NCBI RefSeq assembly: GCF_030028105.1
Contig: NC_092397.1
Span: 29,603,097-29,667,096 of the forward strand
Source: Mobula birostris
Lineage: Eukaryota
Length of the DNA: 64,000 bases
Direction of reading: 5' to 3'
Within the stretch, counting starts at the first letter, position 1, and each line of letters opens with the position of its first letter. The notes beneath the pieces were generated by a model. The model worked only from the letters and a program-made list of their open reading frames with translations. It had not been told where the DNA came from and made no database searches. This document shows, piece after piece, positions 37,455-39,369 of the stretch. A program made the position numbers and the translations under genes.

Positions 37455-37832
37455 AATGGTAGAGTTTTCCAAGAAGAAGGACACTTTGTGTTCAGACTGC
37501 TTCTTCGAATCTCCCTAGGAGAATCTGTATTTCGCAGCGTTCGTTGTTACACTCAGCGGCTGAGTCCATCACTCCGAGCACACTAAACCCTGGGTTTAGT
37601 TGTCAGCTCCGCATTGTCCACCACTTTAGCAAAGTAACTAACCAACATTGACTGTCATTTGCATCCTCATCTTGCTTTGCTACGCAAAATGACTCCAGTC
37701 CCCTGCTGTGCAAAGGGAAATCAGACTTTACAAAGACCTTTCTTGCCGAGGTTGACAGCACATTATCTGTGAACTTTCCCTGCCAAGGCGCTACGTTAAT
37801 TTGACTTGCTGTATCTCCTCCCACTTCCCTTT
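37455..37832 (-). mobile_element. Putative polypurine tract and 3' LTR of the ERV
   Basis: AAAGGGAAGTGGGAGGAGA at 37814-37832 just after the env stop, then about 350 bp of non-LINE sequence ending ...CTCTACCA. Confidence 0.4.
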
Positions 37833-37914
37833 CGTTCTGTAAAGGACAACATGGATTGTGGGTGCAGTTGAATTGTCCAGAGAATTCAGGTCTCCTCAGT
37901 GATCCTGTCATCGA

Positions 37915-38860
37915 CTATCCTGAAGAGGAGGGTTGCTGAACAACAATGCAGGCAGCCGTTCTTTGGGCCATCACTCCGCAGAGTGCTCTCATGCAAGAAA
38001 TTAAAACAAAGTTTAATATCAGCAACTGGAGTTGCACAAACTTCCTAGCGGGGACTGAAGCCAATTATAGGTCCCAAAGGTGATAATAGAGTCGTATGTA
38101 TCTCCGGACCAAACTTATTACCCTTAACAGCTTCCAACGGGATCCATACGGTTAAAGTTGGTGATGTTCTCAGATATATCAAGGGTGTTTGTCCATTATT
38201 CCAGACCAATGATGGCACAGTTATCTTCACTCTCAGACAACAGAACGTTTAATGCTGTTCGGTTTTGAGACGCAACTTTGCAGTTTTCTGCCATTTTGTG
38301 AGAAATATCATTGGTGTTCAGACTTATATCAGCACTGTGGCTGTGTCGTTAGCCAATTACTGCAACATTGGGGCCATACCGATGCTCCCACGAGTCAGTC
38401 TGGTGGGTCCCCAGAACAGGAACACTAAAATCCAGTAACGCTGCTCAGTCTCCTTCAGCCTTCAAAGCTGGCAGATGGTATGTATTTGGTACTACCTTCG
38501 CCAAATTATAATAACCCCTTGACAGTGTTTGTTCAGACCAGAGACACCATTAAAGTAGAAAGGGGATACGCCGGGACAATAAATACAGTCGGCTTGCTAG
38601 CCCATTCTGTAAGTGCCATTAACAGAAGGTGTGATATCACTGGTGATATAGGTATTGTTACCTAAATCTGATCCCATCACCCTGTAGATGCAGTAACAGA
38701 CTTCACCCTCATCCTCACGAAGCAGCTTCACAGCTGAGAATTTATGCAGTCCATTATAAGAAATTTAATAGCATCATTCAAAGCAGTTCCATTGGCAAGT
38801 GTGATTTCTCCGGGCAGTTCAGCCCAATGCTCCTTTCACAGCTCTAACATTGATACCACA
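37915..38860 (-). pseudogene. env: Endogenous retrovirus env remnant (gamma-type SU C-terminus and TM)
   Basis: Manual translation gives, in order: NGTY; GYYNLAKVVP; RYWILVFLFWGPTRLTR; LANDTA; KVASQNRTALNVLLSESEDNCAIIGLE*WTNTLDISENIT; hydrophobic LLILNFVLISC. Confidence 0.78.
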
Positions 38861-39369
38861 GTGAAAAACAGAACCAAACTTTCCCGAACCTCGTCACCTC
38901 CATTTGGCCTTCGGCCCGGCGCTGACATCGATGGAAGCTTGTGATCTCCTCGCTGTCAGCGAAGGATCCGCCACCTTGTCACGGTTCTGCCACCTCGAAT
39001 TGTCTTCAATTCCAAAGGGAAGTTACAGACTATTACTTGTGATAATCAACCCACACAAATTGCTGGAAGAACTCAGCAGGCCAGACCGCATTTATGGAAG
39101 AAGATTTTTTTTTTCCATAGATGCAGCCTGGTCTGCGGAGTTCCTCTGGCAATTTATGTTTGTTGCTCGAATTTCCAGCATCTGCAGATATTCTCTTGTT
39201 TGCCAATTGCGATAATCGTTTGCCAGAAAAAAAGTGCGATGGACAAAGCAGAAATGAACCTCATGATACCGACCACTACCCCCTTTCAGTGAAGCCATCT
39301 CTTTTGTACAGTTCACCTTTGCACCACATGAAGTCACGGAGATCCGGTAAATGCAAGTAGGCATTTTCC

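Follow-up and report, generated by a model that had tools for sequence, protein, structure and literature searches.

Gamma-type envelope proteins (Env) are cut by furin into SU and TM subunits, which stay joined by a labile disulfide between a CXXC and a CX6CC motif, and they fuse membranes (described in PMC9967133). The same source treats a span of 26 residues, the ISD plus CX6CC, as the signature of gamma-type Env. A pattern given in PMC11575397 for this fixed 26-residue span has nine conserved positions in the ISD and three cysteines, and six residues of the pattern are invariant.

Endogenous retroviruses (ERVs) with gamma-type env are reported from six cartilaginous fish, three of which have >500 copies, and clade Env-C.2 of the same study groups percomORF with Envs of cartilaginous fish (bioRxiv 10.1101/2021.11.23.469661). 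According to PMC12813294, the number of intact env ORFs per genome ranges from 1 to 777 across 40 chondrichthyan genomes, with a mean of 80. Among the entries for eight batoid genomes, seven have 26–390 intact env ORFs and the eighth has 4 (PMC12813294). Three ERV lineages are described from the elephant shark (PMC4422223). We count the abundance of gamma-type env in cartilaginous fish in favor of reading the locus described below as an env remnant. The genome-wide counts also overturn the statement, made with the original prediction of this locus, that the ERVs of chondrichthyans are sparsely described.

The locus lies on the minus strand of the 64-kb stretch of DNA that we analysed ("the window"). 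We propose that positions 37915–38722, and perhaps everything up to about 39040, are the decayed 3' env part of an ERV with a gamma-type envelope, and it is very likely that plain decay of a provirus produced it. Descent from env by one route or another seems highly probable, because the fragment has ordered, spaced similarity to published fish Envs (judged by eye) and because of the statistics of its flanking features. This would be one ordinary decayed locus, and its class has already been catalogued in bulk in sharks and rays. It has some modest methodological value, as a fossil that Pfam and phmmer are not sensitive enough to detect but that the order of its motifs reveals.

Env-like pieces on the minus strand

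Translating the minus strand of the window recovered all of the motifs in the original prediction, each at its coordinates, in three frames. Their order on the minus strand is SU end, fusion peptide (by position only), HR1, ISD/CX6CC, membrane anchor, and stop, which is the order in env. There are at least four changes of frame (near 38519, 38462, 38333, and 38040). There are also six stops within the env pieces as read: 38597–38599, 38357–38359, 38196–38198, and three at 38115–38126, which may fall in an off-frame stretch. As predicted, the ORF track misses the fragment: no ORF of 120 codons or more covers the env region. The 64-kb window contains no second copy of 37626–39042 and no other env-like piece at E ≤ 1.

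At the upstream end, 38723–39042 (-) is single-copy within the window and may carry the 5' part of env. It has no Pfam match, and it includes a hydrophobic 12-mer (38845–38880) whose hydropathy is in the top 0.3%. It is followed by a probable but weak trace of decayed SU (38519–38722, -), with two N-glycosylation sequons, the motif NGTY (38609–38620), a candidate CxxC (38576–38587), and the first of the six stops (38597–38599). In the reference Envs of fish, CxxC is much more distant from the SU end than this single one is, and 38519–38722 has no Pfam or homologue match.

The C-terminal SU segment (38463–38516, -) was assigned by its similarity to fish Envs. It includes GYYNLAKVVP (38487–38516) and has the motif G-x3-L-A-x3-P, which occurs at 3 sites in the window. 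A basic stretch, RLKE (38450–38461, -), is placed by its position at the expected SU/TM cleavage site. As the original prediction stated, there is no furin site: the consensus R-x-[KR]-R is absent from every frame of 38370–38520. (We rejected R-L-T-R near 38396 as a furin site, as it is just ~11 codons before the HR1 motif.) The hydrophobic RYWILVFLFWG (38408–38440, -) is where the fusion peptide would be expected; this candidate is assigned by position only, and its hydropathy does not place it in the top four windows. LANDTA (38339–38356, -) is an HR1-like motif with a stop just before it (38357–38359), and this short motif occurs at 9 sites in the window.

The TM core is at 38160–38279 (-). 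Within it, a 26-codon span (38193–38270, -) resembles the ISD and CX6CC of a gamma-type TM subunit and has a stop inside it, at 38196–38198. The rest of the TM ectodomain would be at 38040–38192 (-), with an HR2-like stretch and a membrane-proximal stretch that contains W, and with the three stops at 38115–38126; past the first 12 residues after CX6CC, this assignment is tentative. Next comes a segment that resembles a membrane anchor, with a short tail and a stop (37915–38025, -). The anchor includes LLILNFVLISC (37993–38025), and the stop that ends env is at 37915–37917. The hydropathy of the anchor over 19 residues is 2.14, which ranks among the top 0.2% of six-frame windows; no value within 37900–39050 is higher. 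About 80 nt past the env stop, there is a run that resembles a polypurine tract (37814–37833, -; 19/20 purines).

The present locus cannot give an Env protein: it is broken throughout, it has no furin consensus, and it lacks two of the three TM cysteines. If intact, the ancestral gene would have encoded a class I fusion protein made up of SU and TM, in which an ISD was present and CX6CC linked the two subunits by a disulfide.

The ISD/CX6CC core

The conserved positions of the ISD are L1, Q2, N3, R4, L7, D8, L10, G15, and G16. Five of these nine match exactly, so the ISD is degenerate, but the spacing is correct: the locus retains Q2, N3, R4, L7, and L10, as well as the first cysteine. CX6CC is expected right after the 17-residue ISD. 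Its first cysteine is in exactly the right place, but the other two cysteines are replaced by a stop and by Trp. The spacing of CX6CC was originally described as exact, and it is indeed kept. Overall, 6/12 positions of the published pattern are exact matches, and 3/6 invariant residues are kept.

When sites were ranked by codon distance to the published 12-position pattern, the locus was the best of the 127,816 sites in the window. However, a site that was as good or better by codon distance turned up in 112 of 400 simulated windows, and a site with six exact matches in 387 of them. So the sparse 12-position core is suggestive, but on its own it is not significant at the level of a 64-kb window. 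Adding six positions that four types of teleost Envs have in common reduced the number of simulated windows that equalled the locus to 45/400. We dropped these positions as a discriminator, as the locus matches just 1/6 of them exactly.

These simulations are one reason to consider that the fragment might be unrelated non-coding DNA, from which env-like words were picked out of three frames. The four frame changes leave freedom in picking the motifs, and every database search was negative (see below), which also fits with chance. The comparisons with known Envs argue against it.

Similarity to published fish Envs

We took reference Envs from the supplements of PMC12813294 and PMC4422223. Six types are represented, with the seven Seb-env3/4 genes, which are near-identical, treated as a single type, and four of the references were translated by eye. 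We compared the fixed 26 residues of ISD and CX6CC, without gaps; identities were counted by eye, and the chance rates were computed from residue composition and are given per window. The most similar reference was percomORF, with 12/26 identical residues and 4.5e-4 chance sites expected (or ~3e-3 after six comparisons). The elephant-shark ERV Env and Ola_env_108 were each identical at 10/26 residues, with 2.3e-2 and 3.3e-2 sites expected, respectively. So three of the six comparisons are below 0.05 expected. The remaining three, each with 9/26 identical, are not significant: Seb-env1 (0.25 expected), Seb-env3/4 (0.34), and Tor_env_40 (0.40).

Outside of the core, we again counted identities by eye. 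The SU-end segment matches Seb-env1 at 8/18 ungapped residues (chance of 7.6e-4 in a 150-nt zone) and percomORF at 5/10 ungapped residues (1.5e-2 in a 150-nt zone). The agreement with Seb-env1 extends past CX6CC, with 5/12 identical residues in the stretch that comes next (9.6e-3 in a 150-nt zone). In HR1, 4/9 residues of the motif are those of percomORF (0.13 alone). The distance from the SU end to the ISD is 246 nt here, as compared to about 280–310 nt in three references. HR1 and the ISD are 80 nt apart instead of 63, so HR1 is 17 nt further out than in percomORF.

The SU-end motif, the HR1 motif, the anchor, and the purine tract are all at env-like distances from the core; in the background, not even three of those four features coincided at any of 123,800 positions. 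Combining the four flanking features with the rate for the core gives a joint estimate of ~1.3e-8 per window, which is too small as given, because the two short motifs and the widened distance ranges were picked after viewing the locus. This post-hoc choice calls for a penalty, but even with a thousand-fold penalty the estimate would be far from chance. Given that the ungapped match to percomORF is over a span set by the literature, and given four more features in the right order, we consider a chance resemblance to be highly unlikely.

How does the fragment differ from its closest known relatives? It has the same order of motifs as percomORF (Ssc_env_95 in PMC12813294 Data S5; clade Env-C.2 in bioRxiv 10.1101/2021.11.23.469661). 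However, percomORF is an intact and conserved host gene, while the fragment is broken and is ~36 nt shorter from the SU end to the ISD, and its placement in this clade would be tentative. The CmiERV env of the elephant shark, as given in Additional file 1 of PMC4422223, has an HR1 motif that is similar by eye to that of the fragment, and it also has a stop of its own, just ahead of the ISD. But the CmiERVs are described as complete or near-complete proviruses with pol, two of them with paired LTRs, and the fragment has none of these. Seb-env1 (Ssc_env_16) and the other teleost ERV Envs in PMC12813294 are intact ORFs with a furin site and the full cysteine motif, all of which the fragment lacks. 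Compared to the gamma-type Env family more broadly (MLV and syncytins; PMC9967133, PMC11575397), the fragment keeps the 26-residue length of ISD and CX6CC, but it is missing three of the six invariant residues and has no match in Pfam or the PDB.

Database searches

We searched Pfam with the six frame translations, with seven tighter pieces, and with a 162-residue read-through that has X at the breaks, and these matched 0 families. Searching the PDB by sequence did not find a match to Env; we judged the matches to YdcD (E = 0.14) and lipocalin 2 (E = 0.56) to be due to chance. Three word-indexed searches for homologues, with 295, 79, and 213 candidates, had none at E ≤ 10. And phmmer, with a single 160-residue frame (of which ~40 residues are probably off-frame) against 1.84 billion protein representatives, found none at E ≤ 0.001. 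The prediction of an env fossil is supported by ordered similarity to fish Envs but not by a significant match to Env in Pfam, the PDB, the homologue searches, or phmmer. It had been suggested that either the lack of a match to Env TM or a better match to a cellular gene would count against env; the former is what we found, but in the searches that we ran, no cellular gene matched the env region better. Because these searches did not include an intact fish Env as a positive control, their blank results place the fragment below the limit of detection and do not show that it is unrelated to Env.

We also considered a plus-strand gene across 37401–38902, which had no Pfam match and was rejected. 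A single-sequence AlphaFold2 model had a pLDDT of 33 and was discarded.

A duplicated tRNA unit and a possible LTR remnant

Downstream of the fragment, a 3' LTR was proposed at 37455–37813. We rejected this for 37455–37625, just under half of the proposed span, which is colinear with 25953–25778; similarly, 37288–37625 is colinear with 26078–25778. This sequence belongs to a host unit on the plus strand (36740–37625) that comprises a decayed tRNA-Gly, a spacer, tRNA-Asp (37270–37343), and a 3' flank. The unit has an inverted paralogue at 25778–26670. In the alignment of 36740–37625 to 26670–25778, 556/803 columns are identical (69%), so this is a divergent, inverted duplicate, and 36740–37625 is host sequence that lies outside the viral remnant. 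Homology between the two units ends near 37625 (z is about 0 beyond), with no further homology up to the repeats at 39043. We also rejected the tRNA-Asp as a primer-binding site, because the complete tRNA gene is present and has a paralogue.

Since 37455–37625 is inside the duplicated tRNA-Gly/tRNA-Asp unit, at most 188 nt (37626–37813) are left for an LTR. This stretch, which follows the purine tract on the minus strand, is the most that could remain of a 3' LTR (the U3 side), and even this is unproven. It is absent from the paralogous tRNA unit and has no partner copy in the window. The polyadenylation and TATA words (AATAAA or TATAA) do not occur in 37344–37813. The predicted polypurine tract is present at 37814–37833, but there are 19 comparable purine clusters on the minus strand, and the tract is followed by TA, not TG. 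We did not find paired LTRs or a target-site duplication in the window, where shared words are at chance level. A 7-mer that is common to 37601 and 38954 was rejected as a target-site duplication, with ~0.5 expected by chance.

The env fragment is missing from the paralogous tRNA unit (25778–26670). This suggests that the fragment was inserted after the tRNA unit was duplicated, or else that it was lost from the other copy. Because it is present in one of two paralogous units and absent from the other, the fragment could be a dated marker.

The paralogous units retain opposite tRNAs in detectable form (Gly at 26593–26664 and Asp at 37270–37343), while the partner tRNAs have decayed. In the paralogous unit, the place of the env fragment is taken by single-copy sequence (25157–25778) with overlapping open frames of 133 and 153 codons and no Pfam match.

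Upstream repeats and the absence of gag and pol

Upstream, the fossil is bounded by interspersed repeats (39043–42450) that are multi-copy in the window. These include a multi-copy piece that we take to be SINE-like (39043–39210), a multi-copy ORF on the plus strand that we take to be Penelope-like (39351–40465), and a LINE reverse transcriptase on the minus strand (41205–41636; RVT_1, E = 5e-18). Pfam was blank for the ORFs of the first two. At the edge of the fossil on this upstream side, a pair of SINE-like ends pointing towards each other makes up an imperfect palindrome of 119 nt (39047–39165; 76%).

The original prediction also reported no gag or pol, and this held up. Pfam searches of the minus strand of 38699–45400 gave just LINE-type RVT_1 and one sub-threshold match to PMD, with no domains of gag or of retroviral pol. 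The reverse transcriptase domains upstream of the env fragment are of LINE type. Short motifs of retroviral reverse transcriptase and protease are absent from the whole window. The virus had been labelled as epsilon/gamma-like. This label cannot be set, because no pol remains and because gamma-type Env pairs with three groups of Pol in anamniotes (epsilon-related, gamma-related, and class III SnRV-related).

How the fragment may have arisen

We infer that a retrovirus integrated in the germ line just past the tRNA-Asp gene, in a cluster of histone and tRNA genes. (A joint histone/tRNA cluster has been described in the red stingray, and also in human and zebrafish, so it is not diagnostic of the host.) After integration, the provirus would have decayed neutrally, presumably by acquiring stops, frameshifts, and internal indels in that period. 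Its gag, pol, and 5' LTR would have been lost from the window, and interspersed repeats are now in their place.

A more unusual history seems very unlikely to us: the fragment might be a very old percomORF-related env, without a close living relative among proteins, that was fixed at an orthologous site of the histone/tRNA cluster throughout the elasmobranchs, or it might be a dead copy of a co-opted env that is intact in some live-bearing relatives. If so, the locus would date this lineage of Env, or it would be a lead to a syncytin-like gene of cartilaginous fish.

We also considered that env was once co-opted here as a standalone host gene, like percomORF or a syncytin, and later became a pseudogene. 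This would explain why env is alone, with no gag or pol found in the window, and why the highest identity (by eye) is to percomORF, which is co-opted. However, it seems inconsistent with the number of breaks (six stops, along with four or more changes of frame) and with the purine tract, which is still in place after the stop, like that of a provirus. Furthermore, Envs of the percomORF clade are reported from ordinary ERVs of cartilaginous fish as well. We consider co-option to be extremely unlikely.

It is similarly hard to credit that there was never a full provirus at this site, with the fragment arising as a retrocopy of spliced env mRNA, or being brought by segmental duplication or deletion. 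What is left amounts to env plus no more than about 190 nt beyond the purine tract, and the region is a duplicated, repeat-rich cluster, both of which fit with such routes. But there is no poly(A) run near 37626 and no target-site duplication above chance. In any case, the identity of the fragment as env would be unchanged, and the route alone would differ. The least probable source is the endogenised gamma-type glycoprotein of a non-retroviral virus (GP2 of a filovirus or reptarenavirus, or F-env of a herpesvirus): ISD and CX6CC are common to those viruses, but the SU-end motif matches fish retroviral Envs, a purine tract follows the stop, and the similarity of the F-env of chelonid herpesvirus is reported as limited to a TM region of 164 residues.

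Other features of the window

Besides the decayed env, we detected genes for histones, four tRNAs, and a GPCR of the rhodopsin family in the window, where pieces of LINEs and SINEs are numerous. The types of repeats would suit an elasmobranch, and the context as a whole is compatible with the cartilaginous-fish host that was predicted. The histone cluster (3796–8132) includes ORFs for H2A and H2B on the minus strand and a histone 3' stem-loop (3796–3841), and an H3-like gene near 7600–8030 is visible as an antisense ORF. Genes for tRNA-Asn and tRNA-Met are 130 nt apart on the minus strand (29474–29750). At 51496–52221, a 34-nt tandem repeat gives long open frames on the minus strand, which have no Pfam match. 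The GPCR is an uninterrupted, single-exon ORF on the plus strand (49980–50975; 7tm_1, E = 1e-23), and it presumably resembles the GPR139-like expansions of cartilaginous fish.
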